A stretch of 64,000 nt of DNA from positions 1,984,001 through 2,048,000 of the forward strand of contig JANJGN010000056.1 of NCBI GenBank assembly GCA_026770705.1, given 5' to 3'. The DNA comes from Isurus oxyrinchus (taxonomy: Eukaryota). The translations under genes and the position numbers were made by a program. Positions 15,546-56,745 of the stretch are shown here, in pieces (within the stretch, counting starts at the first letter, position 1; each line of letters opens with the position of its first letter). The notes under the pieces were generated by a model that worked only from the letters and a program-made list of their open reading frames with translations, was not told the DNA's origin and did no database searches.

Positions 15546-16400
15546 CTTTCAAGAGAACATTTTAAGGTCTTATCATTCTCTCGTTATTTTTTCTGTCTTT
15601 TCTTTGCATCCAAGCAATATTATCCCCATTTTCTTTGTCTCTGCTCGTGCTAGCCATTGAATCCTAAATACGAATAGGGCCGCTCATTTGTGTCACTTAA
15701 ACAGTCACCTTCAAACTTACCCAGTTAGGAATAGTCGCCCGCATTTACAGGTCACTGCAGCACTGTCCATATCTGCCCTCATTGTGCGGTGCCAGGCCCG
15801 GTCGCCATAATATTCCATACCCGAGGCACGGCTCTGTCTGCCTTACTCTAACATCGAAGCACATGCACCTTAATCCCTCCATCCTATCTCATTATTTAGG
15901 ACAGTGATATTCTGTCTCTATTTCCCCTCACTACCTCTTCTGCCAAATTGCATTATTTTACATTGCAACACATTAAATGGCATCTGCTAATCCCCTGCAT
16001 ATTCTGCTCATCTCTCCATTTCCGATTGCAAAGGATTCGTATCATCCTCACTGGAAAACTCCCACCATGTCTGCATCACTAACACTTTTTGAGACGTTGT
16101 GCTGTAATCCTAGATTCCACTGATCTATGTTGACCAAAAATAAAACAAGCACTGATTCTTGGGGAACGCCACTGGCTACCATCATCCAGACTGAATGAAA
16201 ATGCTAACAAACAGATTCTGTTTTCTGTGCATTACCACAATTGATGCAATTGGAAAGCGACTCCTCCCCCTCCCACAACCAGCGCCTCTGTCTATTTTAA
16301 TGAGCATAAGCAGCCTTATCTGCGATTAGCTGTCAATTAATATCTCAAAATCCACTTTGACATCTATTAATTCATTAATTTTCTCTGTTGTGATATCAAA
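15545..16400 (-). mobile_element. Old CR1 RT fragment; inverted counterpart at ~55250-56024
   Basis: Degenerate CR1 RT sequence. It aligns as a reverse complement to 55250-56024. Confidence 0.55.
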
Positions 16401-16539
16401 ATACAAGTAGTTTGTACAAGCATATTCTTATTTTAAGGCATGGTGTTACAAACCAGTGACCATTCTTAATTCAATTCAACCGTCTCTAATTCCCGAATAG
16501 ACTCTTGGCAGTCAGGGCAGGTTAAAGTATTCGTTTAAT

Positions 16540-18040
16540 GCTGCAGTTGAACAGTGAGAGCAGAGATTTAGAGAGAATGAGGAGCTGATCACGAACAGGT
16601 GATTTTTTTTTTAAAGAGGAGTAGTTGAGTTGCCAGGGCAGAAAGGTAAAAGAGCGGGGTCTGAGGTGCCAGAGGAGAGATTTAAAAAGAGCTACAGCGA
16701 GATATTCAAAGCATGGATTAGAAAGTGGCTGCTCCCCCATAACAGATTTTAAAATAGTGGGAGCTAGATAATCAAAACACAGAGAGGAAAGTAAAAGGCG
16801 CTCTTCTCCCAAAGCAGAGATTAATAAAAGTAAGGAAGCTAAATAGGTAGAGCATAGTTTTATAAGAAGCAGGAAGTATTGTCTAGGACATGATTTTGCT
16901 ATAGTAGAAGAGAGCTGTCAGACTGGAGAAACAGGAAGCGCAGTATCTGTGCGGCCACAGAGACAATGATAATTTATTATTATTGATTAAGGGGGTTTTG
17001 GTGTCAATCACTCGCACAGCATTTATTGCCCAGACGTAGGTACCCTTGAGAATATAGTGGTCAGCTCCCTTCTTGAATCGCAGCAGGTAAGGCTACAACC
17101 ATACTGCTCTTAGGGAAGGAGTTCCTGGAATTTGACCCAACTACAATGCTGGAACAGGGATATCGTTTCAAACAGACTGGAGAGTAGCTTGGAGCGGAAC
17201 ATCCAAATCGTTGTGCTCCCATGAATCTGCTGCCCATTATTCTTCTAGATGGTTTCGGTCGTCGGTTTGGACTGTAATGTCAAAGGTGACTTTGGAAATT
17301 CAGGCAGTGGCACCTTTCAGATAGTACACACTGCTGCTATTGTTCGTCGGTTGTGGAGGGAGTCAACGTTTATTGATGTGATGTCAATCTAAGACTGATT
17401 TATCCCAGATGTTGTCACGCTTCTAGGCTGCTTTGGAGCTGCACACACCCAAGCAAGTGGGGAGTGTATCATCACCATCCTATCATCTGGCTTGTAGATA
17501 GTGGAATGGAATTAGGGAGTCACCGCAGGATTCCTAGCCTCTGATCTGCAATTGTAGACGTTCTGTTTATATGGCCAATCCAGTTCTGTTTCTGGTTAAT
17601 GATAAACATTACAAAGCTGATAGTGCGAACTTCGGCGATGATAATGCCATTGAATGTTGGCGTTCCGTGGTTTGATTTTCTCTTTTGGAGATATTCATTG
17701 CCTGGTGTCAATGTCCTTTGCCACTCCTCAGCGAAAGTCTGAACATGCTGCATTTGGCCATGGACAACCTCATGATTTCAGGAGTCACGTATTGTGTTCA
17801 GCATTGCGTAATCATCAGCGAACATTCCCAATTCTGACCTTAAGATGGTGAGAAGCTCATTGATGATGGAGCTAAACATCGTTGAGCTTCGGACATTACC
17901 CTGAGGAACTGATGTTCCCTCAGGAACTAAAAGGACTGGGAGCTGAGCAGTGGAGATATATATTTAGAAAGTGCACGTGGCGAAAAGCCAGAGCTAACAT
18001 TTAGAAAAGAGTGGTAGCTGAGCCGGCGGTGTGGGCATTT
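16540..18040. repeat. Degenerate ~35-40 bp purine-rich tandem array (agagattt-a-rich-gtgggagctgag), split by a LINE insertion; mirror copy at ~53670-55090
   Basis: Units are visible at 16550-16940 and again at 17930-18030, either side of the LINE at ~17000-17925. Confidence 0.6.
17000..17925 (-). mobile_element. CR1/L2-clade LINE 3' fragment (same family as 1680-2640)
   Basis: The reverse complement contains gttcctcagggtaatg...ggtcagaattgggaatgttcgctgatgattac (PQG...FADD). Confidence 0.75.
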
Positions 18041-19319
18041 AGTAATTCAGGCCCTAAGCAGCCAGTGTGAAGATGTCAGAAACACTGTAGCTGCTCGAAA
18101 AGACGGATCACGTATGCTTTTCTCTAAGAGCAATTAAAGATTGGCAATAATTGTTTTTCTTCCCAACTATGCCTCCCATGCCATGACCGAACTTGTCGTG
18201 CTTTTAATGTTCATTTATTCAAGGAAAGCGGTTGTAGTTTTCTATTTATTGCCACGTTAATTGGCAGTTGGTCTGGACAATCATTTTACCGGGTGAGTAG
18301 GGTGGTTAATTAGGAATCGTCAAGAAGATTTTGGATTAATATCATTGAAAAGTGAATGACCCACATAACAGGGAGAAGCCGGCGGAGTGACTGCCGGCTG
18401 CATCTTCCTTAAGAGAGACAGTAAGGAAAGGAGGGGCCAAATGATCTGCTTCTGTGCTGTAGACTTTCTATGGTTGTATTCTACTAACGGCATTTAAGTT
18501 AAGTAAATGATAAGAATATTCGACGAGAAGAATTACATTACAATTTTTCTCATTCAATATGCGTAGGTATACAGGAAAGGAAATTAATGGTAGGGCCATG
18601 TGTGATCAGACGTTTCTTGACTGGGAATTCGTGCAGATACCTGGTTGAAGCTTCACTCGCTATATTGATGAGTGGGTATCAAGTCATACATATGAAAATA
18701 TTCGAGAATTATGATACCAGCCATTTGGTGGCTGTGTGTGTGTGAAAAGACCGGATAACATGAAACAGAGAGTGTTGTGAATGAGCATGTGGGGTGGAAG
18801 TAACCTCATTAATCATGGAAAAAAACAAGTATGAGCTATTTGCGCTTTCAAATGAATCGGAGGGAAATCGGATTTAAAAGTTCAGTATCCAATATATGGA
18901 GTCGTCTCTCAGTTAAACGGATCATGGTAATGAGTGATCAATTGCGCCACTGCCCGTCCTTTCCCAAACCACGTGATGACCAGGCCTTCCTTGTTTTAAT
19001 CATGTGAGGTAAATGGAAATCTGAGAAGCAGCTCATTGCGCAACTGTTTGATATTTGGAGGGTGCCAGACTTCGTGAAACATGTTCTAAAAATTCCCCCT
19101 ATGTACTAATTGCCCCAGAATAGACGTCGTAGGAAATTTGCCAAGTTTGTCTATGTTACATCTGTCGAGTTGTCATGATCCAGCTGCTGATGTTTGGGTC
19201 TTCTCTTGTTGATCAGAACCACTGTTCCAATGAACACAAGGCTGTCAAAACCTGGCGTCACAATTCATCCTTTCAAACTCTGCAACGCTAACAGGAGCTG
19301 TTCAGTATTATTATTCTTA

Positions 19320-19325
19320 TTTATT
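19320..19325 (-). terminator. Candidate polyadenylation signal of gene A
   Basis: AATAAA on the minus strand about 230 nt past the stop. The equivalent position in arm B also has AATAAA (52346-52351). Confidence 0.4.
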
Positions 19326-19554
19326 ACTATTATCACAACTTACAATTCACCATTGATTACTGTATACTGTGAAAAAGAGTTCATTATACTACAACAGAGC
19401 ATTTTAAGTAGGATACCTTTTTTAGTAAGATAGTAAACGTTGTTACAAGTGTTATTCTGAAATGAATTATTTCAGGGCACGATGTTTATGTCCGCCTGTA
19501 AAGGTCAATGGTTTTCAGCTGTAATTTGCATAGTTTTGCGCTCAGTTTCACAAG

Positions 19555-20408
19555 TTACTGCATTCCGCTCTTCAGCTCCTCCCTAAACCTAGCCTGTGTC
19601 AGCACACAAATGAATGCATTTGTGCAGCAACTGAGGTCCCCTAGCATGAATCCAACTGACTTAAGCTCATTTGCCTCAGAATGTGACGTGAGTGTTACAT
19701 GCAGAGAGATAATATATATAACAGGAGTTGTCCAGAGCAATATATAGCTGCCAGTTATACTGAAGAGTAAAATAATGGACTTTCTTCGGCTTTCAATTTC
19801 AGAGTCCTTGAGATGTTCTCCATTACTGCAACCGTGGAGACCTCTGCGAACTTTACTGGCTGCCAAAATACGTCTCACCGTCAAAACATTTAGCAACAAG
19901 ATTAGAATGAATGGAACACATGGGGTCAAGGTAAGGGTAAATAATTCAAATGCGGCCCACTCAGCAGAAATGAAAAATGTATATTTTGGGACACAACCAC
20001 GATTTACATTGTCCATTATATACACAGGTTCATATGCAAAGTACCATGGAATGTTTATCAAAAATCTCAAAACACTCACCACGGTTATGACAGCTACCGC
20101 TGTTGTTTCGGTGCAATATTTTTTTCGCAGCTTCTTACAACATATCGCCACAAAATGATCGAAGGTGAACACCACTGTTAACCACACAGAGGCTGATGTG
20201 ACTACATAAATCAGTGTTACCGATAGATGGCACACTGTGCCCATGGTCAAGAATAAAATAGGAAAATACATATCTAGCGTATTCTTCAGTATGACTTCAG
20301 CAAAAACAACCAGGAGATCTGACGCAGCAATGGCAATCATAAAGTGGGTAATACATTTGGAGAGGCCACACTTTCTTCTGGAAAGGATCACAATCACAAC
20401 AACATTAA
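19555..20408 (-). CDS. Gene A exon 2: GPR139/GPR142-like class A GPCR (TM1-TM7); the joined protein is 307 aa
   Basis: Open frame with seven hydrophobic segments and the motifs CGLSKC, AASDLL, SVWLTV.FTFDHFVAICC, PFILILLLN, RRKSIILL and LSCCTN. A pyrimidine-rich acceptor (ccctctcttacag) ends at 20409 and its phase 1 matches exon 1. Stop TAA at 19557-19555. Confidence 0.9.
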
Positions 20409-23400
20409 CTGTAAGAGAGGGATAGAGAGAGCAAGAGATAGACGACACAGATGAACATGATTAATTTCTTCCCGTTGCAGCACAGGACATTGCACTTGAC
20501 CAAAATATGCACAGACTGCTTTCCGAGGTTAGCATGTTCTAAATGTTATCTGGACCTAGTGAAAGTAGATAGAATAGGGAAACATCAATTTATGATTCGT
20601 CTTTTGAAAGGAACCTCTTCAACGTAAACTGGACAACTAATGATCAATAACGATTGAGATTGTTGAGGCCGAATGTGACCTGGACAATTTGAATGCAAAC
20701 AAACAGCTGGGCATCGTGAATATTAAAAGGTAAATGAGAGGTGTAAAGAGTCAATTAACTTGTGTTGGCACAATGTGAAGTGAGAAGTGAATGGGCAAAA
20801 TAGAATCTGGGCCATGTAGAGTTATACTCTGCAAGAGGTAGTGGTGCAATGCGTGTTGGGTGGTCTATAAATGTGAATACGTAATTGGAAGGATTACTGT
20901 GCTGCAGGACTTACAGCTTGAAGGTAAAACATTGCCCAGTGGCACGAACATACTCTGAACGCTTGCGACGGTAAAGATGGAATGATAAACACACAGGAAC
21001 ACGCAATGGTCACTGAGCTACAAAAAAAGACCAGCATAGATTCCCAGGGAGAAGTTTTATTCGGAGATAAGAGCTGATCAGTCATGTGTTTTAAGTCACA
21101 TTATGTAACGTGAGATTGATTTGCTGGCTGGGCATTGTGCACGATTATTTCAGGTGAATGCATCGCTAATGTATTGCAGAAAGAATGAAGCAACATTGGT
21201 ATGCAGAATGGGTGCAGTCAGTGCTGATCAAGAGGCCAGTTTATTAGCGGACTGGGAACGGAGATATTACAATGAGATTGAGTGGGCAATATCTATTGGC
21301 CATAGGGGTACATATCTTGCAAATCAAAGTGAATGAGCAATTCAAAGATGCGATTCTAGTGAGGTTATAACTACCGAGTAGACAGGACAGAGTTCCCATT
21401 ATTTGATCGGTTGCAGAACTAATCACTTTGTTGCCGTAAGGGCAGTAGGGAGTCGATTGTGTCTCAATGACAACATCCGTGATTTGAAAGGTGAAGCTTA
21501 AAATTGATTTTTTTGGGGGGCACCAAGTGCATAAAATTGCAATAATGATTGACTATGATGGGCACAAGGATTTGAGCCTGTAGACTAACATATGTTCCAA
21601 AAAGTGAAATTACGAATTGTCGATTACCTGCCAATAAAGATCTAACTCCTAATACACTCATGTTTAAATTAATATCGTCTACAGCTTGATTCACTTCAAA
21701 TTGGCCAGGCTCGTAAAACGCATGAACCTTTGCATTATTTGTTAAAATGCATATTTCTTTTTTTTTCAAAATGCAGGAACCTTTTCCGAGAATTAGCGAA
21801 GTTATTCAATGCTGCATTGTTATACAGAAGATTAACTTCAGTCATTTATACCGATTGCTGATCAAGTTAAAGGATCTATATAAGTCAAGCGAAATTGACG
21901 TGAGCCTCAGGTAATCACGGTTGCATTATGATTTCTGTTGTTTACTTACTAAAGTCCCATTTGCATTTTGAAGAAGAGGCTTTCTAAGTGAATATCACTG
22001 AACTAATGTGTAACTGCCAGGTATGTAATAACGTGATGTGCACTTTTATTAAATTATTTCCTGAATTTCAAAGCAAGTTAAATATCTCTAGCCTGAATTA
22101 TTATCAGAAGTAAATAATCGGCTCGCTGCTGAAATTTTGTTTGTAGTTCTGATGGTGATGCAAAAGGACAGGATGTCATGGCTCCGGCAACGGTGCAGAA
22201 CAGCTTTCCGACTGAAATCTCCAGTCAGATTCGGCAGGCACAGATTAGGGAATGGAAAATGCACATTCTCAAAATTAGGGGATGAGTAGATAGAGAGTTA
22301 TTTCAAGTACCAACTGGTTTCATGGCTATGCAACATGGTGTAGTCGGAAAGTAGATTTTTCGCGAACTTGAACTTAGGGAAACAACAATGCATTGAACAT
22401 CTATAAACGGGGTGGTGAAGTAACATTTTGCATCATATTATTTCAGTAAGTTGTCGCTTTATGTTTCAGATGAACTTTGAATGAAGTAAGGCCAATGAGT
22501 CGGATAAAGCTTTTTTAAAATTTTTGGATCTGATTAAAAGCTGGCAAGCTTTGACCACACAAACAAAGAAAATATCTATTTGCGTTACATACACAGCCCA
22601 GTTGGCAGCCTCCGATTCGCAAGTCTCTAACTCGAATGCAAGCGTCAAGCATTGAACGTCTTAATGGAGCTGTCAAAGCTAATCACAATCAGCCGTGAAA
22701 ACGCCAGGCAATGGATAAAAATTAAAGTTTGATTTTCCGTGAACCATGTAGGATTCACTGGAAAAGCTGGAAGCATTATTAATCAAAGCTAATTTCACAC
22801 AATTGCATCTTAAAATAAATGTCAAAAATGAAAATTGACCTTCATTTACCCGATAACTATTATGATTTGAGCAAATCTAATATATATATATATATTCCTA
22901 CAACGACATGAAATTAAACTGGGAGACATAATTATCCGTGTGCTATTGTGAATTATACAAAGACTGTTAGCCAATTTATCAGCACTTGAAACAGTACCGG
23001 CCAGCACTGTAAATAAGGAAACAGCTTAAAAACATTGTAACTGAAACAATTATATAATGAAGCAGCCAATATTTGAACTCATTAATTATCAAAACTACTA
23101 TCCAATAAATAATCAGTATACTTGCAGAATTTTCCTCCGAATTAAACGTTGAAATGCCCCAGGAATGAACCCACCCAAATATCTGCCCAATGAAATAGTG
23201 ACGTGTCCAAACCATTATCCACTACTTAGCTAACAAATTAAGTATACAGTCATCAAATATATTATCAACATTATTTCCTGCTAAATAAATTGGAGAAATG
23301 AACATGTATATATGCGACAGAATTACCCATTGCTCTCTGGAACTGCAATCCTCTTCTGACCTGTTAATGATTTGCTGTTTGGGAAAAGGAACATGCAGCA

Positions 23401-24849
23401 GGTGCAGTGCACTTTGAAAAATGTGCCTCTTGATGTCGTTACTACAAACACCCGAGTCTCAGGAACTGCGGAGTTTCCTCCACCGTCCCAACTTTAACAT
23501 CAAATCGCAAAGTAATTACAAGATAACAATTTTCTATCGCATCTTTTGCATGCAAAACAGTTCCTGAAGGCCTAATTCATTTCAGTGAATTTGTGAATGT
23601 TGTGGCGAACGCACCAGAGAGTGTGATCCACTGAATTGTGTTCGTGGTTATGGCACATTGCTGCAGGCTCCATAGCAGCAGTTACATTAGAAAAGTGAGA
23701 CAAATCCGTTGGTGCATTTTCAAAACGCAAATCGTGATTTAAAATCATAAAGAAATATTACATTAAGTAGACAGCGGCCTGGATTATTCAATTATCGGCA
23801 GCGTGAGATGGAGAAATGTAAAATTAGCCGTTTTCCTATTCACCCTCCCTTAGACCACCTCCCCTTCCACAATTCCTTTAAATTCCCAAGGGGAGGAGGC
23901 ATGGAGTGATGCGAAATGGGCTCCGCATCCAATCGGCAGTGAAAGCCTGAACATCGTGCGGCAGAATGCAATGCTGTGAACAGAAAGTCGTTATAACTGA
24001 AAGCTCAAGACCACCTGCTCTCAGAAACTGTTTTTCCAAAAATATTTTTCATTGTAAGTTCAGGCAAGAAACAAAAAAGTGAAAAGTAAACATGAACGCG
24101 CTGGCACGTTCCCCAGCACAATCTGTAGCCACATTTAATCATGGTCCCGGGGCCTCTGTTCCGCAGGATGGTTGTCTGATGGTAGGTGCTCAGGAACATT
24201 TTTTTTTCTCCCGTCTGGGCCACGGTTATTGCAAAGCACGAATCAAGAAATCATACCATTGTGTCGTTCACAAACTCAATAACTTGCTAATTAGGAAGTT
24301 TTAAAACGTGGGCCCACCCGTTCTACATCTGCAACTGGGAGAGTCTTGTACCTGACGTCATTATACCCGATGCATGTCATTGATCGTCGTGCGTATTCGG
24401 CATTTTTGAAGTGGGTGTAAGTTGGGGAGTGGGGGTTTTGGACGGTGAGGTGAAGGGGGTGCGATTTTCAGACGAAAATTCCAGCCAATCTTTTTGGTTA
24501 AATATGTAATATTCAGGAGTGAATTCGAAATATGCGTTCTCAGTTAGGGGCCAGTGTTCTCCGAAATAATCTACATTTAAACATGCATTTTGTAGTTAAT
24601 CTTTGTTGATACGGAAAATAGAAATAGCCAAAGCCACGATTTCAATAGCAAAAGGACATCAATATTCATAGATTCGTCATCATGCAAATTTTATTTCCTT
24701 TGATCATTTGTCAAGATTAGCACTTTTATTTCCGTTTTCTCTAACTCTTCCTGAAAATAAGGGTTTTCTAGTGCTGCAGTCCATGTGAAGCAGGTGCAGA
24801 CAAAACGCTGCGAGCGATTCATTTCCAGGTTTTTGATCCAGTGACAATA

Positions 24850-26540
24850 AAGGAACTGTAAGTCAGCTTGGTGCTTGACTCGGAAAGGATTTTGTAATTA
24901 ATAGTGTTCCCATGCCTCTTCTGCTGTTGCCCTTCCACGATTTTGAGGTCAATTGCACAAATGAAGGAACGTTGCTGACATCTGCCCTGTGTCCAAAACA
25001 GCAGCAAGCAAAGCTAACAACATGGCTTAACCTGGTGAATTTCAAGCCGGGGCTACTTGCAAGCAAAACAGCGTATTCAGCATGAGAAAGACAGGGCTCA
25101 TTGATCCACTACCAAATAACGATAGCTCAGCTCTGTAGTCCTGTCACAATCACCTTTAATGGTTGTGGAAAATTCTGCACCTCACTTGTTCTCCACCAAT
25201 ATCCCCATCGACAATGAATGTGGAGCGCAGCACACCAGTGCATATACATGGCTTAAGAATTTGCAGCCACATTCACCCTGAAGTGACGGGTAGATGGACT
25301 ATCCGGCCTCCTCTTACGGATGACAAGCATCACAGATGCCAGTCTTCATACGATGTGATTCTCAGCACTCGGATTTAAGGAATGACTGAAGGAACTGGAT
25401 GATGAAGAGGCTATGGGTCCGTTTAGATAATGCCAATAGTACGGTGGATCACTGCCCCTGAATAAGCCTTCCTATCGATGTTGGTATGGTGCATCTAAAC
25501 CTTTGGCATCTATGCTGAACTTTGAGAATTTTCACAGGTATGCCTATCCACAAATAATCACTACAAATCCAACCAATCTAAGAACAGCCCCATCAGCCTA
25601 CATTTCATCAGGATCAATGTGATGAAAAGCATCATAGAAAATGCGTTCAATCGCCAAATACTCAGCAGCAAACTGTTCACTGACGCTCACTTTTTGCTTC
25701 GTGCGAGCTCCAACTCTCGGTTCGGCCTTCCTCCAAACATGTACACAGGTGCTTCACTTATGAAATGAGGAGAGAGTGGCTGTGAATTATTACAGTACAT
25801 CAGTTATCACACTCTGGTATCAAGGATGGGTATGAGAATTGTGGTCAATAAGAATAAGGGGCAACTTCCCAACTGCCTGAACTCATACCAAGCAAAAAGG
25901 ATTATTTTTTCATTTTTATTTTCTTTTGCAGGTGCATCATCTCAGCCCCATGACATAACAGGATGGCAGACTGAGGGCAGTGTCCCGAGCCCACCCAACT
26001 TAAGCTGCTGCATCAATTATGTTCTCTCCATTTGAAACACAGTAGGAGGCTGGTGTAGTGGGGAGGGTGTGGGAAAGTGAGGGGAAGTTATATCCGCTGA
26101 AAATTGTTCAAAGTTCTGCATCGTTCACGACTCAACAGATGCTGATGAAATCCGTGCCCATGTGCATCAAGTCCTGGGCAACAGCCAGACTTGTGCTGAC
26201 AAATGACAAGTAATATTTGCGCCGCAAAATTGACAGGAAATGACCATCTGCACCAAACGAACATCCAACAAAATAACCTTGACATTTACTCGCCTTACCA
26301 TCGCTTAAGCCCCCTTTGACCAGCCATTGACAAGAATCTGTGACTCGAAGGGCAGGTCAAAATCTGAAAATGCAGTGGTTAGCAATGCAACTCCTGGCTC
26401 TCCAAAACCTTTCCTCCATCTAAAATGCACAAATCAGGAATGTGATGAGATATACTACACCTGTCTAGATGATTTACGCTCCAGTAGAATTCAAGGATAT
26501 TGACTTAACCCAGGACAAAGCAGAGTGCTTGACTTGCAAT
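24850..26540 (+). mobile_element. Decayed CR1/L2-clade LINE in the intron of gene A; mirror copy at ~44760-46450 on the minus strand
   Basis: Contains RT-like gggcagtgtcccgagcccacccaacttaagctgctgcatcaatta (GSVLGP...CINDL) and upstream RT sequence. Confidence 0.65.
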
Positions 26541-29077: not shown

Positions 29078-29147
29078 CAGGAACACCAATGGCCGCGAGA
29101 ATAGGATAGTAAATGGCTTCTATCTGCCGAAGTATCAGTTCTCCCAT
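29078..29147 (-). CDS. Gene A exon 1: MGELILRQIEAIYYPILAAIGVP plus 1 nt
   Basis: ATG at 29147, 70 nt long, donor CCTG|gtaaaag. The YYPIL...GVP N-terminus is typical of the family. It has 59/70 nt identity to gene B exon 1. Intron 29077-20409 is 8669 bp. Confidence 0.9.
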
Positions 29148-31124: not shown

Positions 31125-32165
31125 CAGCCCTGAACAGATGATCAGTGTCATTCGCTCTTTGATGATGGCGTCATAATCAGAGCGATGCAAAGTCACTGAT
31201 AAGTGTGAACTCGTTTCATGTCACTTGCGGCACCAAATAAGACTGTTTAACAGCTCCAGCTCTGGTTTTCATACATTTGTCGGTCATTCTCCAGGCATGC
31301 ATTCAAAGAGCTTGACAAAGGATTGCACATACATCTCAGGACCACAGGCAGCCTTTTCAAAGAACCAAAATTAAATCCTTGCACAGAGGTTAGTGGAAAG
31401 CTACAAGCGGATGCCTTATTCGCGGACCAATGCGCACTCATAGCTCAGGATCAGGAGACATTCAGCTGAATGCTGAGCGCTTTGCTGCAAACTCAGAATG
31501 TTTTCCATTGACAATATATCTGAGGATAGAGATGCAGTATCAAACCGTTGCTGTTCACGTGCTCCAAGATGCCACAGCCGCTTTGAACAATGCACTCCTC
31601 TGTTCTTTACAGTGCACTCCAAGGGCACTAACTGGATGGGCAAATTACCCATCGCCTGACATAAACAAGCTCGGCACTTGGCAGGCTTCACTCACTGACT
31701 TCTGCAAAGAAAACAAGGAATTTCCTTCAGATGGAAGATCAAGTCGTTCCAGGCAATGTTTTTTTATATCACTTTCATATCAGTGCGAAACTTGCATAAA
31801 CTTTTGGCCTCTTAGAAAGCTAATGAAAACTTTCCAACTTCGCTGTCCATGAACCATTTCCAACGGTTGCTGGCAGGACCAAATCGACAAAACCGATAAT
31901 CTTGTAAAGTGCTGCATGCCTGACATTGAAAATATGTTCATTAGAGCCCTGGTTGCCTGCGTTGGTCATGCGGTTCATCTGGAAAATGCCTACATAATAA
32001 TACGCCACACTCAGTGAGCACAGGAAGCTCCACTACAGAATGTCTGAAATCTCAAAGCCAAACTCAGAGATTGCAAGCTGGATCCCAGTACATGAGGTCC
32101 TGACACCACCTTGTTAAAAGCAACCTGGTGTGCCTGCACCATATGAAGCATACACTCTGCCACCC
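31125..32165 (+). mobile_element. RTE-clade LINE RT fragment, truncated at the inner duplication boundary
   Basis: Translations HAFKELDKGLHIHLRTTGSLF and DIQLNAERFAANSECFPLTI match RTE RT segments. Confidence 0.7.
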
Positions 32166-37911: not shown

Positions 37912-37919
37912 CTCCAAAA

Positions 37920-41916: not shown

Positions 41917-41986
41917 ATGGGAGAACTGATACTTCTCAAGATAGAAGCCATTTACTACCCGATTCTCGCAGCTGTCGGTGTACCAG
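41917..41986 (+). CDS. Gene B exon 1: MGELILLKIEAIYYPILAAVGVP plus 1 nt
   Basis: Start context aaaATGG, 70 nt long, donor CCAG|gtaaga. Too short for the ORF track. Intron 41987-51250 is 9264 bp. Confidence 0.92.
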
Positions 41987-44188: not shown

Positions 44189-44490
44189 TTTATGCCAAAC
44201 AACAGAGCAGAAATTAAGGGTGAGGTGCAGGTGTTTCAGGAGGGATGGGAGGAAAAACTTTTTCCCCAGAGTTTGGTGACTGTCTCTAATGCGCTGCCTG
44301 CCAGTGTGGTAGAGGTGGATTGCCTCACAACCTTTAAAAATTAACTGGATGAGCATTTGGCACGTCAATACATTCAAGCCTATGGGTCAAGTTCTGGTAA
44401 ATGCGATTACGTAGTCAGAACAGGTGTTTCCCACATACCGGTGCAGATTAGAAGGGCCGAAGTTTCTCTTCTGCACTGTGATTCTGTGAT
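44189..44490 (+). mobile_element. Short 5'-truncated CR1 insertion specific to arm B
   Basis: CR1 3' end with tail ctgtgattctgtgat, flanked by TCGT at 44185-44188 and 44491-44494. It is absent from the paralogous site near 26880. Confidence 0.8.
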
Positions 44491-47301: not shown

Positions 47302-47425
47302 TCAAAAATATTTCTAGGTTTTAGGTTGTTTTGAGCTTGTAGCCATAGCGACTCTCTCTTCACAGCATTACACTCTGCTGCATGAGGTCCAGGCGTTCAC
47401 TGCCGATTGGATGCGTACACCTTTT
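47302..47425 (+). repeat. ~125-bp inverted repeat, copy 1 (intron of gene B)
   Basis: The reverse complement matches 48421-48545, including a long exact core ccaatcggcagtgaacgcctggacctcatgcagcagagtgtaatgctgtgaa. Confidence 0.9.
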
Positions 47426-48420
47426 GCATTTTTCATTGCCTCTTGCCCGGAATTCTATGGATTGACGAGGTGGAGGCCGTCTAAGGGAGGGTGAGTGAGA
47501 CAAGAGGGAGCAGACCACTCATTTTGCTTTTACCCAAGCTCACAATGCCGAAAAACGTAAAATCCAGTGTGAAACCTACTTAATGTAACGTTGCTTTATG
47601 AACCTAAATCACTTTTAGCGTTTCTAACCTGCAGCAGGGGGACTAGTCCGGCCTTTCTACTGTTTCTGTTGCTAACGAGTCTGCAGCAATGTGTGATAAC
47701 CAAAAACACCCTTCAGTGGATCTCACTCTGTATTGTAATAGCCAGAACATTATCAACGTCCCTGAAATGAACTGGAGCTTTAGGATCTGCTTTGCATACA
47801 AACGATGCCGCAGAAAATTGTTATTGTGTGCTTACATTACGAATGAAATATCGCTCTTGAACAGATATGGAGTTAGGAAAGTGGCAGAACCTCCATCGCT
47901 CTGTGGTTCATCAGACTGGGGTATTTACGGAAATTACACCAAGAGGCACATTAATCAAAGTGCACTGCCCCTGCTCTTGGTTTCTTTTCAAAAACAGCAT
48001 ATCAGTTACAGGTGAGAAGCAGATTGCATTTGCAGAGAGCAATTCCACAGCATATTTACATGCTTATTTCTCTAGTAAATTTATCAGGGGCTTTTGTGGA
48101 AAGTATACCTGATATCTGTACAGTTAGTTTGACAAATAAAATACTGCATAATGGTTTGGATAATGCACGATTAAATTAGTTAGAACATTGTGTGGTTCAT
48201 TCCTGGAGCATTTCAATGTTTAATTTGCAGGAAAATTCTGGAAACATATTGATAATGTATTGGATATCAGTTTTAATAATTAATTTGTTCAACGGTTGAC
48301 TGCCTCAATGTATAATTGTGTAAATTACTGCCTTTTTCCTATTTTTAACTGTTTCCTTACAGCTCTGGCCAGTACAGGTTCAGGTGCTGAAAGTCTGGTT
48401 AACCATCTTTGTATAATTCA

Positions 48421-48545
48421 AAAAATGGTGTCCGCGTCCAATCGGCAGTGAACGCCTGGACCTCATGCAGCAGAGTGTAATGCTGTGAACAGAGAGTCGG
48501 AATGGCCACAAGCTCAAAACAACCTACTCCTAGAAATATTTTTGA
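48421..48545 (-). repeat. ~125-bp inverted repeat, copy 2 (insertion relative to arm A)
   Basis: Matches copy 1. The paralogous site in arm A (~22935-22950) has only about a dozen unrelated nt here. Confidence 0.9.
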
Positions 48546-51250
48546 TATTTATGACTCAGAGTGAACTTACTGACATTGTAGGGATATAAATGCTAGAGTT
48601 GCTCAGGGAATAATAGGTATAGGATAAATGAAGGTAAACCTTAATTTTTGACGTATCTTTTGGGCTTTAATTTAGTCAAAATGGCTTTAATTTCTTCATG
48701 TCTCCCCCATTTTCCAGTGCAGCCTACATAGTCAACAGAAAATCAAACTTCACCTTATATACATTCCCTGGCGTCTTCAAGGCTCTTTGACAGTTCCCAT
48801 CAAGTCAATCAATGTTTTTCGCTTTCATCCAGTTAGAACTTTGTGAATCGGTGGCAGCAGTTGCCAACTGGGCTGTGTATGTCACCTTATAAACATCAAT
48901 TTTTTTATGTGTGTTCAGAGCTTGCCAACTTACGAGTTGATACAAAAATGTAAAATTCTGTTTATCTGTATCCGAATAATACCACTTACGTTTCTGAAAG
49001 TTCATGTATATAATTAACCTACATCTTCAGGAATTAATATGATCCAAAATGTTCATTCAGCACCCCATTTATATTCATTGCTCCATTGCATTGATATGTT
49101 CCTACAAACAAGATTGCAAAATCTACACTTTCATTCTGCTCCAGGTTGCAAAGCGTTGAAAGCAGTTGGTACTTCCATGAAATCTCTTTTCACTCATCCC
49201 TTGATTGCGAGGATATGCATGTTCTATTCCTTAATCTGGGCATCCAGAGTCTGACTGGATATTTCAACCGAAAAGCTATTCTGTACCCTTGCAAGAGCCA
49301 AGAAATCCTCTCCCGCACCATAGGCATCAGCACCACCAATTTCAGAAGCAAAACAATTACTTATTTTGGGTATTAATTACGACTTGAGTTATTTAAATTG
49401 CTTTGAAATGCTGATAAAAATAAATTAACTTGTGCATTCAATTAGTAAATGTATGGTAGCAACAAATTGGTTCATTGGGAATCACTGAGAAACTCCATTC
49501 TTCAAAATTCAACGGAGTTCTATTATGTAAACAACCGAAACATTGATGCAGGCACAATTATCTGAGGCTCACGCCGATTTCGCTTGATTTATAAAGATGA
49601 TTGAATTTAACCAGTATTTACTAGAAATGATTCAATTTAATCTTCAATATATTAACACAACATTGAATTAGTTAGCGAATTCACAAAAAATGTTCTTGCA
49701 TTTTGAAAAAGAAGTAATCATTTTACTAAATATTGCTAATAATCAAGGATATGATGATCCGAAACAATTTAAAATAAAATTTGCTGCAAGGTATTATAAT
49801 GTAACCATGCATGTGTTAGGAGATAGATCATTATCATGAAGTAATCGACACTTCATTGTTTTCCTCCTCTAATCATATATTAGACCTACAACAATCTACC
49901 TAGGCAAATCGGTGGGCCCCTCATGGTCCATGTCGACCTGAAACTTTTGCACTTGGTGTGCTGCAAGGGTCAGTGTTCAGCTTCACATTTCAAATCATTT
50001 CTCACGGATACTGTGAATGACACGCAAGTGACTCCTTGAAGCCTTTTCGGAAACAAGGTTCTTTGATCTACAGCCGATCAATCAATGGGAACGCTCTCCT
50101 GTCACCTCAGAATCGATAGTTGATTTTAACCTCATTGGAATCACATCTTCGAATTGCTGACTCGCTCCACTTTAATACCAATGTGCCTTGCATCACTGTG
50201 ATTCCTATTGTCCCTGCATTTTGCGACATGCATTCAATGCACTTTACATCTAGTCCGTCCAAAAAGAAGCGTGGTCCTGCACAATACCCGCTCTGCATTC
50301 CCATTGGCCAATAAATATTGTTCACTTAATCTGATAGCAATGGCGCCGTTCCCATTCGGCCATTAAACCGCCCCCTTGATCAGCACCAAATATACCCAGT
50401 CGGCAAAGTAATGTTGCTTCAGTTTTTTCCGCAATGAATTAGCGATGCATTCACCTGACCTGCGCCTTCACAATGCCCCGTCTGCATATTAATCTTACAT
50501 TACTGAGCCTGCCTTAAAACACCTGACTTATCAGCCCTCATTCCCTACCACAACGTTTCACTGCGAATCTGCATAAAAATTTCACCATGTTTTGATTCTC
50601 ACTGGACCGGATCTGTGAAGACCCTTGAGTAAACCTTTATTCGGCCTCGTCTATGCTAGTGTTTCTTTGCAGCTCAGTGACCATTCTAACGTGATCTGTG
50701 CAACTACTATTCCATCTTTGCACTCCCAAGCGTTAGGAGTATGCCCATGCTGCTGGGCAGTACTTTACCTTCGAGCTGTCAGTCCTGTGTCACAGCAACC
50801 CTTTCAAATACTTATCACATCCATAAACCACGCAGCACACATTGCACCACTACCTCTTTCAGAGTATAACCCTACTTAGCCCACATTCCATTTTGCGTCT
50901 TCATTTCCCAATTGATATTGCACCTTCACACATGAATTGTCGCTTTATACCTCCCATTTGCTATTTAAAGTTCGACATGCACTGCCGTTTTTGTACGTTC
51001 AAATTGTCCGGATCACATTCTCCCTCAAAAAGCTCAATCATTCTTGCACAGTAGTTGCCTAGTTTAAATTGACGATGTTCCTATCAAAAGAGGAATGAAC
51101 GGTTCCCTCTCCACATTTAGTACATGCTACTCTCGGGAACAGGCTGTGCATGTTTGGGTCAAATGCATGTGCCTTTTCGATAACTGCAAGAGAAGTTGCC
51201 TTGTTCATCTCTGACTTCTATCTCCTTCTCTCTCTATCCCTCTATTACAG

Positions 51251-52155
51251 GGAATGTTCTTGCGATTGTGATCCTTTCCAGAAGAAAGTGTGGTCTCTCC
51301 AAATGCATTACACACTACATGATTGCAATGGCAGCGGCTGATGTCCTGTTTATTTGTACTGCAGTTATACTGAAGGAGATGCTGAATATTTATTTTCCGG
51401 GTTCATTCTTGACCATGAGCACGGTATGCCAGCTAACTGAGACATGGATTTATGTAGCCACATCAGCCTCTGTCTGGTTGACATTGGTGTTCACCTTCGA
51501 TCGTTTTGTGGCGATATGTTGTCAGGAACTGAGAAAAAAATATTGCACAGTGGCAACAGGCATAGTTGTCATATCAGTAGTGGGTGTTTTGAGTTGTTTG
51601 ACAAACATTCCATGGTATTTTGCTTATGAACCTGCATATATATTTGACAATGTACCTCACGGTTGCATCCTAAAACAAGCATTTTTCAATTATGCTGAAT
51701 GGGCTGCATTTGATTGGTTTATGCTCACTTTGACCCCATTTGTTCCATTCATTTCAATTTTGTTGCTAAATGTTTTGACGGTGAGACGTATTTTAGCCGC
51801 CAGTAGAGTTCGCAGGGGTCTCCGCGGTTGCTGCAATGGAGAGCATCACAATGATCCAGAGATTGAAAGCCGAAGAAAGTCCATAATTTTACTCTTCAGT
51901 ATAACCGGCAGTTTTTTATTGTTCTGGGCAACTCCAGTTGCATATATTTTCTCTCTGCGTATAACAATCATTTCATCTTCTGGCAAAAATGAAATTGAGT
52001 CATTGGGATTCATGCTTGGGGCCCTCAGTTGCTGCACAAATACGTTCATTTATGTGCTGACACTGTCTAGGTTTAGGGAGGAGCTGAGGAATGGAATGCA
52101 GTACCTTTTGAAATGGTGCGTACAATTAGTCATATTACAGCTGAAAGCCAATTAA
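51251..52155 (+). CDS. Gene B exon 2: intact GPR139/GPR142-like class A GPCR; the joined protein is 324 aa
   Basis: Acceptor ctctctatccctctattacag ends at 51250, phase 1. Motifs GN (TM1), AAADVL, C3.25, FTFDRFVAICC, the ECL2 cysteine, FW..P, NTFIY and helix 8 RFREEL are all present. Stop TAA at 52153-52155. Confidence 0.95.
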
Positions 52156-52310
52156 CATATGCAAGAGGACATAAAAAATGTGCCTGAAGGGACTCACATT
52201 AGCAAAATACGTGAAGCAATGTATGGCCACTCTGTATAAAGTTATATCCCTGCTAAAATTATTCCTTTACATTATTAGCCCAAATTGAACTCCTTTTCAC
52301 TGTACACTGT

Positions 52311-52351
52311 AATAAATGGTGGATTTGAGGCGTGATGATATTAATAATAAA
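52311..52351 (+). terminator. Candidate polyadenylation signals of gene B
   Basis: AATAAA at 52311-52316 and 52346-52351. Confidence 0.45.
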
Positions 52352-53769
52352 AATAATACTGAACTGCCCGTGTTATAATGGCAGGGTTTGACAGGAGCGA
52401 ATGTGATTCCAGATTCTGAAAACATTGAGCTCATTATACAGTCGTTCTGATCAACAAGAGAACACCACAAACATCACCAGCTGGAACGTAATAACTCCAA
52501 CAAGAGTAACATAGAAAAACATCACAAATACCCTTCAATGTCTCTCTGGGTCAAATACCATATAGGGGGGTTTTGAAAACAGGTTTCATGAAACCTGGCT
52601 CCCCCCAAATGTCCGACTGCTGCATAATGAGTTGCTACTCAGAGTTCCCTATAACTCACATGATTAAAACAAGGAACGCCTGGCAATCACGTGTTTTGTA
52701 AATGACCGAGCAATGACGCAATTGATCACATGGTACATTTTATCACATATTCCCACGATCTTTCGGACTTAGAGACGGTTCCAGATCTTAACTTCGGATT
52801 TCCCTACGATTTATTTGATAGCTTGCATAGCGCAAACTTAATCATTCACTATCACAGGTTCTGCCTCCTCCCAACATGCTTATTCATAACACTCTCTGGT
52901 TCATGTTTTCTGGTCCTTTCAAACACACGGCCACCAAGTGCTTGTTATCACAATTCACAGATGTTGTGGCGTCTGACAATTATTAACTTGACGTCCACTC
53001 TTCAGAATAACGAGTGAAGTTTCAGCCAGATATCCGCACCAATTCCCAGCTATGAAATGTCCACTCGCTCATGGCCCTACCATAAACATCTTCCTTTGTA
53101 TTTCTACGCAGTTTGAATGTGAACTAACATAATGTTATACTTGTCTTCGCATATTCTTATCATTTATTCTCATTTATGTTACTAAGCACAGTTCGTAGAT
53201 GCAACCATATACAGGTTACAGCATGGAGCAGATAATTTGACCCGCCCTTTCCTTATTGGCTCTCTGAAGGCGAAGATGCAGACGGCAACCACTCCTCCCC
53301 CTTAGGCAAGCTGTCTGGGTCATTCGGTTTTCTCACATACTAACACAAAATCACGTTGACCTTTCCTAGTTGAGCAGTTTGATCATCTGGGAAAATGGTT
53401 GGCCAGAAAAACGGCCAATTAAAATGTCAAATATACACTGGCGTTAGATACAAACCTACACCCGCTGTCAAGGAATGAATTAACATTAAAAAATTGATTC
53501 GATCATGGCATGAGGGGCATAGCTGGCAAGAAAAGAATTTATTGCCAAACGCTAATATCTCTTACAGCAACGTGAACGTGAACCGCCTTTCCGAGCAGCT
53601 ACAGTGAATGTGATATATTCGCAGACGATGCCTAGGGCCTGAATTACTTAAAAAACACACTGACCGCTAGCCTAGAACTCTTTTCTAAATAGTTCCAGTG
53701 ACTTCTTGGTACCTTCACTTTTTAAATATCCACCCTCGCTGCTGAGCTCCCTTTCCTTTCAGTTCCTGA

Positions 53770-54745
53770 GGAAACCTGAGTTCCTCAGGGAAATGAACGA
53801 GGCTCAACCATGTTTAGCTCCCTCTTCAAAGATCTTCCCTCCATTGCAAAGTCAGGATTGGGGATGTTCGCTGATGTTGCACGATGTTCAACACCACTCC
53901 GGATTCCTGAGATAGTGAGGCATCCCTTGGCCAAATGCAGCATGTTCTAGACAATATTCAGGCTTTGGCTGACAACTGGCAAACATTTCACACCATACAA
54001 ATGCCAGCCAATGACCGTCTCCAAAAGAGATAATCTACCAACGACTGCTAACGTTCAATGGCATTAACGAATTTCCCTCTATCAGCAGTTTTCACTCACC
54101 GGAAACTGAACTGGATTAGGCATATAAACACCATGTCCAATAATCCACTTCAGAGGCCAGGAATCCTGCGGAGACTAACACACTTCCTGGCTGCATAAGT
54201 CCTATCCACCACCTTCAAGGCAAAACATAGGATTGTGATGCTATTCTCTCCACAGGCCCAGATGCATGCAGCCCCAACAAAACTCAAGAAGCTTTACAGC
54301 ATCAAGCAGAAAGCAGCCGATTGATTGACGCCACGTCGAGACACAATGAGTCCCTCCACAGCTGATGAACAATGGTAGCAATTTGTGCCTTCTACAACAA
54401 ACACTTCAGCAATTCACCAAGGCTCCTTAGGCCTCACTTTCCAGCAGCAGGTTACCGAAAACACAAAAACCATGAACACCCCTTCAGCCCACACGCCACC
54501 CACCCCTCCCCCCACTTCAGCTCCACCCCTTACCAAAATACTCACAAACCTGCTTTGGAAGTACATTGCTGTTCCTTCTCGGTCTAAATCTTGGAAATCG
54601 GTCCCTTTCAGCACTGTGGGTGTACGGGCACAGCAGGGACTGCTGCAGTTCAAGCATGCAGCTCTCCAGCATGTTCACAAGGTTCACTACTGATTTGCAA
54701 GAAATGCTGTGCCAGCGATTGAGGCCAAAATCCCTTAAATGAATA
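53770..54745 (+). mobile_element. CR1/L2-clade LINE 3' fragment (mirror of 17000-17925)
   Basis: gagttcctcaggg...gtcaggattggggatgttcgctgatg encodes GVPQG...FAD. Confidence 0.75.
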
Positions 54746-56021
54746 ACATAAAAGTTGTTTACGTGGCTGCACAACTGCTTCTTTTTTCCAATTCTCCATT
54801 CAGAGTTCCACGCTCTAGCATAGTCAAATCAATCCTCCATTTTCTTATGAAAGTCTGCTCTAGCTACTTAGCTCCTGTTCTTTTAATAAATCTCTGCTGT
54901 GGGGAAACAGCCCCTGTTACTATTTGAATCTGGGCTTTGATTATCTATCTCCACTCTTTTTAACTCTCTCTTCTGCCAGCTCAGCTCCCGTTATTTCTAA
55001 ATCTCTCCTCTAACAGCTCAGTTCCCGCTCAATTTAAGTCCCTGCTCTGACGTCTCATCTCTCCACTCTTTTTAAAAATGTTCTCACTCATCATCTGCAG
55101 TATTAAAACTATACCAAATCTGAATGTACAGCCAAGCGTTCAGCCCGGAATTTGAGACAGTAGAGATTAATTGCGAATGATCACGATTTTGTAAAAGGCA
55201 TGCCTTTGAATAAGTACATATTTGAGCAACGTAGTTTGCAATCTGATATCACAACAGGGAAAATTAAAGAAGATAATACAGGGGTTATTGGCTAATTAGA
55301 TTTTGAGGTATTCATTGACAACTTAGCGCAGAAAAGGCTGATAATAAAATTTAGTCTCATGAAAGAAGGCAGAAGCGGGGGATCTCTATCAAATTGGATA
55401 CATGTCGGTAACTCACCAAAAACAGAAACTGTTGGTAATTATTTTGTTCGAGTCTGGGTGATGTTAGCCACTGGTTTTCTACAAGAATCTGAGTTGGGCT
55501 CGTGTTCCTTAAACTGTCTATAAACCAGCTGGATAATGGAATACAGCACAACGTCTCATAACGTGTTTATTATACACACATGGTGGAGTGGGTGTTAACC
55601 AGTCAGGATGATACGAATCCGTTGCAGTCGGACACAGATAAATGAGTAGAATTGGCAATGAATTGGCAGGTGCTATTTAATGCATTGCAGAGTATCATAA
55701 TGCACTTTGGCACAATGTGTAGAGGGGTTAATGGATGCAGAATGTCATTATTCTAAACAATGTGGCTGAATAGAGGGACCAGGGTGCATATGCTTCGATG
55801 CTTGAATGTGTTGGACGCAGTCATGGCTTGGGTATGGATAATTGCGTTGGACGAGCCTGGCACCGAGCTATGGGGATGGGATGTGGGGTGCGCTGTGATG
55901 ACTTTTTAATGTGGATGACCTTTCATTTCTGGGTAACATTGGAGGCGTCGGTTTAATTGATGTAAATGAGCGGTCCTTTCTTGTATTTAGAATGTAATGG
56001 CAAGCACGGACAGAGAGAAAC

Positions 56022-56745
56022 AAACACGTGAGTTTACCTGGAAATATAGACAAGTGCCCAGGTCTGTTCTGTCCACTAATTTAAGAAACAATGCAAGTCG
56101 ACAAAATGTGTCTCCATTAATCTACTGTCGATCATCAGAATAAAATTGTCGTGGAGGCCGTTGATAAAGCTACTAATTTACATTAATAATTCCACAACAA
56201 ACGGAGCAGATGTTAAATCGACAGTTTTTCCACACCCAGACATGCGTGATTATGAACAAAAGCACAATTAACTGAAGGCGGAGGCTATGCAAACATCCCC
56301 AACTTGATTGATGGGACAGCAGAACACACGAGAACACAGGACAAGGCAGAACTACTTGCAACAATTTCTGCAATTAGTGGCGGGTGGGTGATCCAAACAG
56401 GCAACAGGTATTGTCCCCAGTATCATAAGTGCAAGTCTTTAGCCAGATAAAATAACTGCACGTGCTATCAAGAGAATGGTAAAGGTTTTAAAATCTGCTA
56501 AGTGCATGTACCCTGAAAAAACGCTGGCATTCGTACCGAGGACATGTGCTCCTGAGCTGGCCAAGCTGCTTCCCAGGAGCTGAAACACGTGAATTTACCT
56601 GGAAATATAGACAAGTGCCTAGGTCTGTTCTGTCCTCTAATATAGGAAGGAATCCACGTCGACAAAATCCGACCCCATTAATCTACCCTCGATCATGAGA
56701 GTAAAATGGTGGTGGAGGTCGACAATGCTACTAACTGACATTTAT
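56022..56745 (+). repeat. Direct repeat of ~165 bp (56022-~56185 and 56583-~56743) within a LINE RT fragment spanning ~56022-56895
   Basis: Both copies begin aaacacgtga(g/a)tttacctggaaatatagacaagtgcc(c/t)aggtctgttctgtcc; offset 561 bp. Confidence 0.85.

Follow-up and report, generated by a model that had tools for sequence, protein, structure and literature searches.

Two receptor genes of Isurus oxyrinchus, here called A and B, lie head to head, which raises the question of how a whole gene with its surroundings has come to be mirrored, and whether the mirrored arrangement still plays a role. The window, meaning the whole stretch of 64,000 nucleotides that was analysed (contig JANJGN010000056.1, positions 1,984,001 to 2,048,000), had been described in a sequence-only reading as carrying a decayed palindrome with colinear inverted arms and a spacer of ~7 kb. 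The features are collected in Table 1.

Table 1. Features of the locus, with positions counted from the first letter of the window.
Feature	Position	Strand	Remarks
Copy C	13..2680	+	End of an older paralog (final codons, 3' flank), 65% to each arm
Arm A	15630..32164	-	16,535 bp; inverted copy with gene A and its flanks (~3.0 kb upstream, ~3.9 kb downstream)
Gene A coding exon 2	19555..20408	-	Protein 307 aa; R108H in DRF, Y291C in TM7, TAA at codon 308
Gene A intron	20409..29077	-	8,669 bp, GT-AG
LINE 3' fossil, arm A	27631..27917		Counterpart in arm B: 43125-43569
Gene A coding exon 1	29078..29147	-	70 bp, phase-1 GT donor
A-only stretch	31815..31974		~160 bp, near inner end
Spacer	32165..39082		6,918 bp, without mirror copy; contains relic D and LINE pieces
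Relic D	37555..37882	+	Part of exon 2 (TM1-TM3), distant family member; within spacer
Arm B	39083..56024	+	16,942 bp; carries gene B
Gene B coding exon 1	41917..41986	+	
Gene B intron	41987..51250	+	9,264 bp, GT-AG
B-only stretch	44182..44490		~310 bp
B-only inverted copy	48423..48545	-	124 bp, 92% to 47302-47425, ~1 kb off, same intron
B-only stretch	50167..50299		~113-130 bp
B-only stretch	~50569-50650		82 bp
Gene B coding exon 2	51251..52155	+	Protein 324 aa, 7tm_1, DRF and TM7 tyrosine intact
Direct copy at outer end of arm B	56022..56187	+	166 bp, 83% to 56583-56745
Pseudogene E	57227..58064	+	Exon 2 with stops and frame changes; distant family member

Geometry of the inverted repeat

Self-BLAST has yielded a single anti-diagonal of eight collinear HSPs, running from 15630/56024 to 31800/39282 at 68-75% identity, and a more sensitive self-comparison (five HSPs) has extended it to 32164/39083, covering 16,344 of the 16,535 bp of arm A and 16,385 of the 16,942 bp of arm B. 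The best arm-arm HSP scored 2,232 bits vs at most 35.6 bits in all 20 shuffled-arm controls. This continuous anti-diagonal rules out scattered repeat-family matches as the explanation of the arm similarity. The upstream DNA of gene A, its 8.7 kb intron, ~4 kb of downstream DNA and the LINE fossils, all of which had been claimed to be mirrored at gene B, have been located there. An assembly artefact, already discounted in the earlier reading, is rejected by the 30% divergence of the arms and by contigs from four of four runs that cover 30 of 30 bins of 19400-39300; no listed contig spans the whole of this interval, and the junctions are therefore not independently bridged.

The layout resembles that of mammalian sex-chromosome palindromes, as far as the part of the source covered here describes them, in having inverted arms longer than 8 kb (here 16.5 and 16.9 kb), a spacer and a gene per arm. 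Those palindromes have by definition >99% arm identity and are kept by gene conversion (Jackson et al., PMC8327919), whereas the shark arms are ~71% identical and show no conversion signal. The word palindrome thus holds as a descriptive term and fails as a definition.

Nor do the two genes stand alone. At least five receptor copies (A, B, C, D and E) lie in the window, four of the five on the forward strand and gene A alone on the reverse, so that the inverted, head-to-head layout of A and B is real but belongs to an array with a third relic in its spacer. The coding exon of copy C would lie to the left of the window; for D and E, a search for exon-1 remnants found none. In the birth-and-death clusters of olfactory, vomeronasal and TAAR GPCRs, intact genes stand beside decaying ones and relics, in either orientation. 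The shark locus is likewise a local array of mixed orientation with intact and decaying genes and relics, but differs from such clusters in non-coding DNA that can be aligned over 16 kb at a dS of 0.37.

Near-neutral decay of the arms

Between the arms, identity amounts to 70.8% in non-coding DNA and 82.7% in exon 2. The Jukes-Cantor (JC) divergence of upstream, intron and downstream DNA (0.34, 0.38 and 0.37) is close to the dS between genes A and B (0.365; 0.30 at 101 four-fold sites), the longest identical non-coding run is 24 bp (shuffle mean 25), and the best windows of 60, 100 and 200 bp do not exceed shuffles (p 0.86, 0.58 and 0.14), so that neither conserved-element nor conversion peaks rise above chance along the arms. 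These values describe a neutrally decaying duplicate and not a palindrome maintained by conversion: the arms have diverged independently and almost neutrally, without later gene conversion, and the proposal of an old event lacking recent homogenisation is borne out. Likewise, arm divergence within the species is not smaller than that between species, as ongoing conversion would have it, since the arms differ by ~29% within the genome vs ~6-7% (31-mer share) or 3.6-9% (single contigs) for the second sampled organism. Arms of 70% identity whose longest perfect run measures 24 bp are not expected to support efficient extrusion or recombination, and the mirrored arms serve no structural role today. 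The coding exons, at a dN/dS of 0.41, have been kept under partial purifying selection.

The sliding-window comparison, which had been suggested as a way to find peaks outside the exons, has shown that identity is uneven along the arms (variance ratio 1.6-1.9, in excess of chance), although no peak beats the shuffles. The upstream 2 kb are 73.7% identical and the 3' end of the intron 75.1%, vs 69.6% in the mid-intron (p 0.001 for upstream against mid-intron). Given the excess variance, partial conversion at an early date, or a weak constraint on the upstream DNA and around exon 2, may have acted. Of the statement that regulatory sequence was copied along, the positional part stands, as upstream DNA lies in both arms; no constrained element stands out in it despite the difference in identity. 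These same elevated segments, and the small number of large indels, would favour a palindrome that still functions, or a regulatory unit common to A and B for their bidirectional control, maintained through selection or conversion. Non-coding divergence equal to dS, the lack of peaks and long identical runs, start codons 12.8 kb apart with a relic gene in between, and the probable decay of gene A make such a unit very improbable.

Indels and probable loss of the junctions

Five indels longer than 50 bp separate the arms. The inverted copy in the intron of gene B is likely a templated insertion that postdates the duplication, whereas the LINE 3' fossil common to both arms predates it. The fossil and its mirror image match the 3' end of a LINE near 4.5-5.6 kb, where a reverse-transcriptase match (RVT_1, 5345-5617) has been found at E 2.2e-6 and 28 bits, just below the Pfam cut-off of 29.6. 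This match and a faint endonuclease, both outside the arms, were the only notable ones in a Pfam scan of 77 of the 84 stop-to-stop ORFs of at least 88 aa (the others were scanned separately, overlapped receptor exons or were simple repeat), and tRNA, tmRNA and Rfam scans gave no match.

Homology beyond the outer arm ends is absent (score 38; shuffle maximum 39), and the spacer halves share only a weak local match (58.5; shuffle maximum 40, positive control 1,314). By tblastx and local alignment, the left flank is not continuous with the spacer start, nor the spacer end with the right flank. Inverted microhomology or junction repeats are not recognisable at 30% divergence. The outer end of arm B is now covered by the direct copy, which at 83% is younger than the arms, hence that end has probably been re-cut later. 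The original breakpoints are probably gone, and the junctions do not tell whether the orientation arose with the duplication itself or through a subsequent inversion.

Two receptors in different states

Both genes are two-exon class A GPCRs of a cartilaginous-fish family named 'probable GPR139' in databases, and both products match 7tm_1 (Pfam E 8e-18 for A, 3.5e-20 for B). Gene B retains the D-R-F motif and the TM7 tyrosine. Gene A has His at 108, Cys at 291 and a stop at codon 308, where gene B has Tyr, and its C-tail is lost. Among homologs, Arg occupies position 108 and Tyr position 291 in 166 of 167 each, and none of the 149 with the motif ends as near helix 8 as gene A; gene A is thus lesioned at near-invariant sites, unlike its chondrichthyan relatives. 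The R108H letter has indirect contig support, as the residual depth equals that of exact-match contigs, while no contig carries the window's letter for Y291C, and the codon-308 stop is not among the 40 listed rows of the contig letter comparison. From the loss of R3.50, the TM7 tyrosine and the C-tail, gene A is probably decaying, and it would have lost its function. Gene B is the putative intact receptor of the pair. It departs from 16 of 104 near-invariant columns, vs 12 of 104 in gene A, so intact motifs alone do not establish its function; protein-level change is faster in gene B than in A, with gene B still intact.

Origin of the inverted pair

We consider it moderately probable that the pair stems from a single inverted duplication, by template switch or fold-back, and that further block duplications came later. 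The starting state would have been a mainly forward-oriented array of two-exon GPR139-like GPCR genes. One of these genes, with both exons and an 8.6-kb intron that carried old LINE pieces, may have been copied once together with 3 kb of upstream and 4 kb of downstream DNA, as a block of no less than 16.5 kb, in reverse and at a distance of ~7 kb, the likely route being a template switch during replication or a fold-back. Independent, near-neutral arm decay without gene conversion would have followed, arm A, probably with the spacer, being copied several more times elsewhere, and gene A decaying while gene B stayed an intact receptor. The event would be roughly 100-200 Myr old. Consistent with an inverted duplication are the continuous anti-diagonal, the similar divergence of upstream, intron and downstream DNA, equal to dS, the reverse strand of A alone among the five copies, and the spacer of 6.9 kb, a non-duplicated stretch of kb size between inverted copies; no junction signature has been found, which counts against it. 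In the parts of the sources covered, human fold-back spacers measure 766-70,466 bp (median 3,428), a range that includes the shark spacer, and are single-copy (disomic), with an accompanying terminal deletion (PMC3907307). An inverted copy a few kb from its template with a non-duplicated spacer is shared by fold-backs (PMC3907307), DUP-NML-INV/DUP events (PMC6902434) and the shark locus. The human events are recent, with readable junction homology, whereas the shark pair is ancient with eroded junctions, and unlike the fold-backs it lies interstitially, with variant contigs mapping over its spacer.

The forward orientation of C, D, B and E is what a tandem array would show, and today's arm ends need not be the original ones, both of which suit a direct tandem duplication by unequal crossover with a subsequent local inversion that flipped A. 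A second event taking in all of arm A is then required, and direct-orientation homology between either arm and the flanks of D, of E or of the spacer has not been detected; we regard this course as rather unlikely.

Public contigs contain other copies 85-90% identical to arm A, in both sampled organisms, and variant contigs also map over the spacer in both. In all 12 contig pieces checked, identity to arm A is higher for the contig (85-96%) than for arm B (65-85%). Old transposon copies are an unlikely source of these contigs, since elements common to both arms predate the 30% split and their dispersed relatives are expected to differ by no less. Summed contig depth, a hint and not a copy number, reaches 512, 108 and 135 in the lowest bins of X3, X6 and X19 vs ~93, 18 and 48 for the presumed single-locus contigs there. 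With relatives of arm A at 85-90% and B at ~70%, B is not the closest relative of A. Growth of the family by local inverted duplication is therefore only partly upheld: an old inverted copy of a whole gene with its flanks exists, but the family has grown mostly by later block duplications.

The 85-90% copies, together with the identity of the gene A protein to the Cetorhinus and Carcharodon proteins (79%, vs 70% to B), also speak for A and B being members of two old subfamilies, an A-type block having moved beside B later than the 30% divergence implies. In the protein tree, A, B, P0001 (Cetorhinus, XP_078390912.1) and P0002 (Carcharodon, XP_041036536.1), the nearest relatives, form a clade (100/99) outside the Heterodontus pair, and the AU test rejects a position of B outside A, P0001, P0002 and Heterodontus (p 0.00025). 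The (A,P0001,P0002) grouping that such a later juxtaposition calls for is weak (93/81 in one tree, open in another analysis), the order of A and B relative to the two proteins giving AU p 0.31 (A and B together) and 0.23, and variant contigs that cross the spacer too suggest that A and spacer were copied together. We hold this juxtaposition to be improbable, more so than the tandem course. Rooted on copy C, A and B group with each other in eight of eight windows and have evolved at equal rates (277 AC vs 263 BC sites, p 0.58).

Place in the shark receptor family

The 7tm_1 domain and the tree place both genes in a chondrichthyan GPR139-like family, for which, out of 4,077 candidates, a search has given 2,039 matches at E<=1e-20. 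The 120 matches listed are all from sharks and rays (48-72% identity, ~324 aa), with no B-like ortholog among them. GPR139 proper is activated by aromatic amino acids. The shark genes are not its orthologs but distant relatives: human GPR139, the best solved-structure match, reaches E 9e-9 and 38.5 bits (best stretch residues 1-147 of 300), vs 300-460 bits for shark paralogs. Same-named relatives at 30-33% identity occur in salamanders, coelacanth and one teleost. The GPR139/GPR142, 'Orphan 139-like' and GPR210A/B groups are likewise distant relatives, and the covered parts of the two papers on them (PMC5207463, PMC6504862) describe no shark expansion. A literature search, with subscription journals mostly outside its scope, found no paper on a shark GPR139-like expansion or on shark Ts/Tv.

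Tentatively, and with considerable doubt, the pair may be read as an early node in a very large shark receptor expansion, undescribed in the literature searched and growing by block duplication at the 20-kb scale, with 14.7 kb of neutral DNA recording a long-term substitution process that would be unusual in its Ts/Tv, its rate and a total of only five indels above 50 bp. Aligned near-neutral arm DNA amounts to these 14.7 kb, with a Ts/Tv of ~0.8-0.9, and is usable for the long-term substitution spectrum of sharks. Should the pair postdate the Heterodontus split, the substitution rate would be at least about 0.7-0.9e-9 per site per year; the pedigree rate of the epaulette shark is reportedly 7e-10 per generation, and the former, if true, would lie several-fold above what that pedigree leads one to expect for multi-year generations.

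As a palindrome the locus is of little weight, being a fossil without conversion and of ordinary mechanism. The receptor cluster is little studied, and the A/B pair is a real but ordinary fossil duplication within it, whose value lies in a well-preserved record of a receptor family that spreads by copying whole gene blocks. That family itself, with its 2,039 matches carrying automatic names only, looks worthier of study than the duplication of A and B.

Geometry and Divergence of the Inverted Arms

The sequence-only reading had proposed a decayed palindrome of ~40 kb (15630..56024), created by an old inverted duplication of a whole receptor gene. This has been borne out by a self-comparison of the window, in which eight collinear blocks fall on one anti-diagonal from 15630/56024 to 31800/39282, the best score in shuffled controls (n = 20) being 35.6 bits. 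A more sensitive self-comparison pushes the anti-diagonal to 32164/39083, which results in 16,535 bp for arm A, 16,942 bp for arm B and 6,918 bp for the spacer; the proposed coordinates and sizes have proved correct. Aligned blocks occupy 16,344 bp of arm A and 16,385 bp of arm B, and the non-coding identity is 70.8% (14,669 aligned columns). The global alignment of 15630-31800 contains 159 gaps, four of which are ≥50 bp and each represent additional DNA in B; a fifth large gap, just within the inner arm end, corresponds to about 160 bp additional in A. At 48423-48545, B alone carries a 124-bp inverted copy (92%) of the intronic stretch 47302-47425, ~1 kb upstream, with ~10 bp replaced. The two stretches make up a small inverted repeat within arm B, younger than the arm itself, and the copy looks like a templated insertion.

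The A/B divergence amounts to 0.34 upstream, 0.38 in the intron and 0.37 downstream, similar to the coding dS of 0.365 (dN 0.150, dN/dS 0.41). The longest identical non-coding run of 24 bp stays at the shuffle level (mean 25), and no identity peak above shuffles has been detected in 60-, 100- or 200-bp windows along the alignment, in agreement with the earlier claim that no recent homogenisation is obvious. As the divergence matches dS and no window exceeds the shuffles, a structure maintained over time deserves hardly any credence. Identity along the arms is mildly and broadly uneven (variance ratio 1.6-1.9; 73.7% in the upstream 2 kb, 75.1% at the intron 3' end, 69.6% in mid-intron), for which regional mutation rate, weak constraint and old conversion are all conceivable causes. 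When rooted with the paralog tail C, A and B group as sisters in 8/8 windows, and their rates are equal. A palindrome of the sex-chromosome type has also been considered: compared with the working definition quoted from PMC8327919, the arms are likewise >8 kb, whereas the identity of 70.8% instead of >99% places the pair outside it.

Receptor Genes and Further Elements

Each arm harbours one two-exon class A GPCR (Pfam 7tm_1), and the two proteins share 72% identity. The DRF arginine and the TM7 tyrosine, each present in 166/167 homologs, are changed in A to His (codon 108) and Cys (codon 291). The stop of A lies five residues past the helix-8 motif, so early in none of the 149 homologs with this motif, and beyond it the translated frame remains similar to the tail of B. 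The non-consensus residual depth at codon 108 in contigs of the public sequencing runs X3, X6 and X19 (93, 17 and 49) equals that of the contigs matching most closely; this change thus seems real and common to the second organism of these runs. At codon 291, none of the contigs aligned there has the window's letter. B has kept both residues; of 104 near-invariant columns, however, 16 are altered in B and 12 in A, and the protein branch of B is the longer one (0.29-0.37 vs 0.14-0.19).

Receptor copies and further elements in the window
Feature	Position or length	Strand	Remark
Gene A	 	-	sole minus-strand copy
Gene A exon 1	29147-29078	-	two-exon GPCR model
Gene A intron	8,669 bp	-	two-exon GPCR model
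Gene A exon 2	20408-19555	-	protein 307 aa
Gene B	 	+	plus-strand copy, two-exon GPCR
Gene B exon 1	41917-41986	+	two-exon GPCR model
Gene B intron	9,264 bp	+	two-exon GPCR model
Gene B exon 2	51251-52155	+	protein 324 aa
C tail	13-2680	+	65% to each arm
Relic D, in spacer	37555-37882	+	exon 2 only; distant family member; splice acceptor kept
Pseudogene E	57227-58064	+	exon 2 only; distant family member; splice acceptor kept
Decayed LINE	4518-7435	-	RVT_1 piece 5345-5617, faint endonuclease piece 7148-7435; 3' end repeated at 63566-63779 (81%), 33580-34056 and in both arms
Remnant	15063-15570	+	similar to non-receptor parts of homologs P0049 and P0071; no Pfam match; presumably CR1 ORF1 esterase-like; stops near arm A outer end
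Loose direct repeats	8561-9010	 	period about 150-160 bp, 60-64% identity

Origin of the Pair

That a single inverted duplication made the pair is the account we moderately favor. Fold-back or template switching would leave the copied block inverted and a few kb away from the original, and A would be the inverted product, as it is the sole minus-strand copy. In the human cases described in PMC3907307 (fold-back spacers of 766-70,466 bp, median 3,428) and PMC6902434 (template-switch inverted-duplication rearrangements), the copy lies a few kb from the template, as it does here. Flank comparison has revealed no flank continuing across either arm. The outer end of arm B coincides with a 166-bp direct duplicate (56022-56187; 83%) of 56583-56745, a decayed LINE-like piece 560 bp further on, and this duplicate is younger than the arms. 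Because no flank crosses the arms and the younger duplicate overlies the B end, the junctions prove nothing. Beside a single inverted duplication, a tandem duplication with subsequent inversion has a minor but appreciable chance, and a secondary juxtaposition of A and B is quite improbable.

Age and Substitution Pattern

In the second organism, 9-11% of the 31-mers of 47000-56000 are present (about 6-7% divergence), and its contigs reach 91-96% likeness to the spacer and the A side. Both arms are therefore older than the split from this organism, the A/B divergence being about five times that of the split. A, B and two lamniform proteins (Cetorhinus XP_078390912.1, Carcharodon XP_041036536.1) form a 100/99 clade with the Heterodontus pair outside, and placing B outside this arrangement has been rejected (AU p 0.00025). 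Provided that the Heterodontus pair and the A/B ancestor are orthologs, the duplication postdates the galeomorph radiation, for which PMC9763247 gives 208.5 Ma as the oldest fossil and 251.9 Ma as the safe maximum; with a paralogous pair, this bound fails. The identities hint at a duplication before Cetorhinus and Carcharodon split off, but an AU test does not reject A and B grouping together (p 0.31); the age is estimated at about 100-200 Myr. Under the same orthology assumption, the substitution rate would be at least 0.73-0.89e-9 per site per year, which sits oddly with the epaulette shark rate of 7e-10 per generation (PMC10587355).

Among the non-coding A/B differences, transversions exceed transitions (Ts/Tv 0.76-0.87; K2P R 0.85-0.99). 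Much closer contigs (85-99% copies, on 19400-39300) give a similar Ts/Tv of 0.87-0.93 in 4/4 runs, and the low ratio is therefore neither saturation nor a peculiarity of the A/B pair. CpG observed/expected is 0.56 over the window.

Receptor Family and Array

The homolog search has yielded 2,039 proteins at E<=1e-20 out of 4,077 candidates; the best 120 of these are all from sharks or rays and nearly all labelled 'probable GPR139'. Nearest among the matches listed are the Cetorhinus and Carcharodon proteins (identity 79%/79% for A, 72%/68% for B), as would be expected if the DNA came from a lamniform or a related shark. Since human GPR139, the best solved-structure match, scores only 38.5 bits, the label denotes a distant family, not orthology; relatives of the same name at 30-33% identity occur in salamanders, coelacanth and one teleost. 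In the protein search, the shark/ray family is very large, carries automatic names only and has many Heptranchias and Heterodontus members. The literature searched (main texts of mostly non-subscription papers) has yielded no description of a GPR139-like expansion in sharks: Table 1 of PMC5207463 holds a group termed 'Orphan 139-like' whose membership is unclear, GPR210A/B are named for bony fishes and coelacanth in PMC6504862, and the main text of the catshark genome paper PMC11979771 is without any word beginning 'GPR'.

At least five family members reside within the window. Exon 1 has not been found for relics D and E over 5.4 kb and 1.2 kb upstream, respectively, up to the arm boundary, and both may have been cut by rearrangements. 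Public contigs from four runs, aligned to 19400-39300 at 85% likeness, cover 30/30 bins in each run. In X3, exact-match contigs (0 differences, 354 + 315 bp) adjoin contigs that are 85-87% alike, with one overlap. In 12/12 pieces compared, arm A has a closer match in the contig than in arm B, and variant contigs per run number mostly 1-10 at the listed intron, upstream and spacer places, with more in exon 2 and a LINE. Several younger copies of arm A, and probably of the spacer, therefore exist elsewhere. The duplication is real but of an ordinary kind, an old inverted segmental event within a birth-and-death receptor array.
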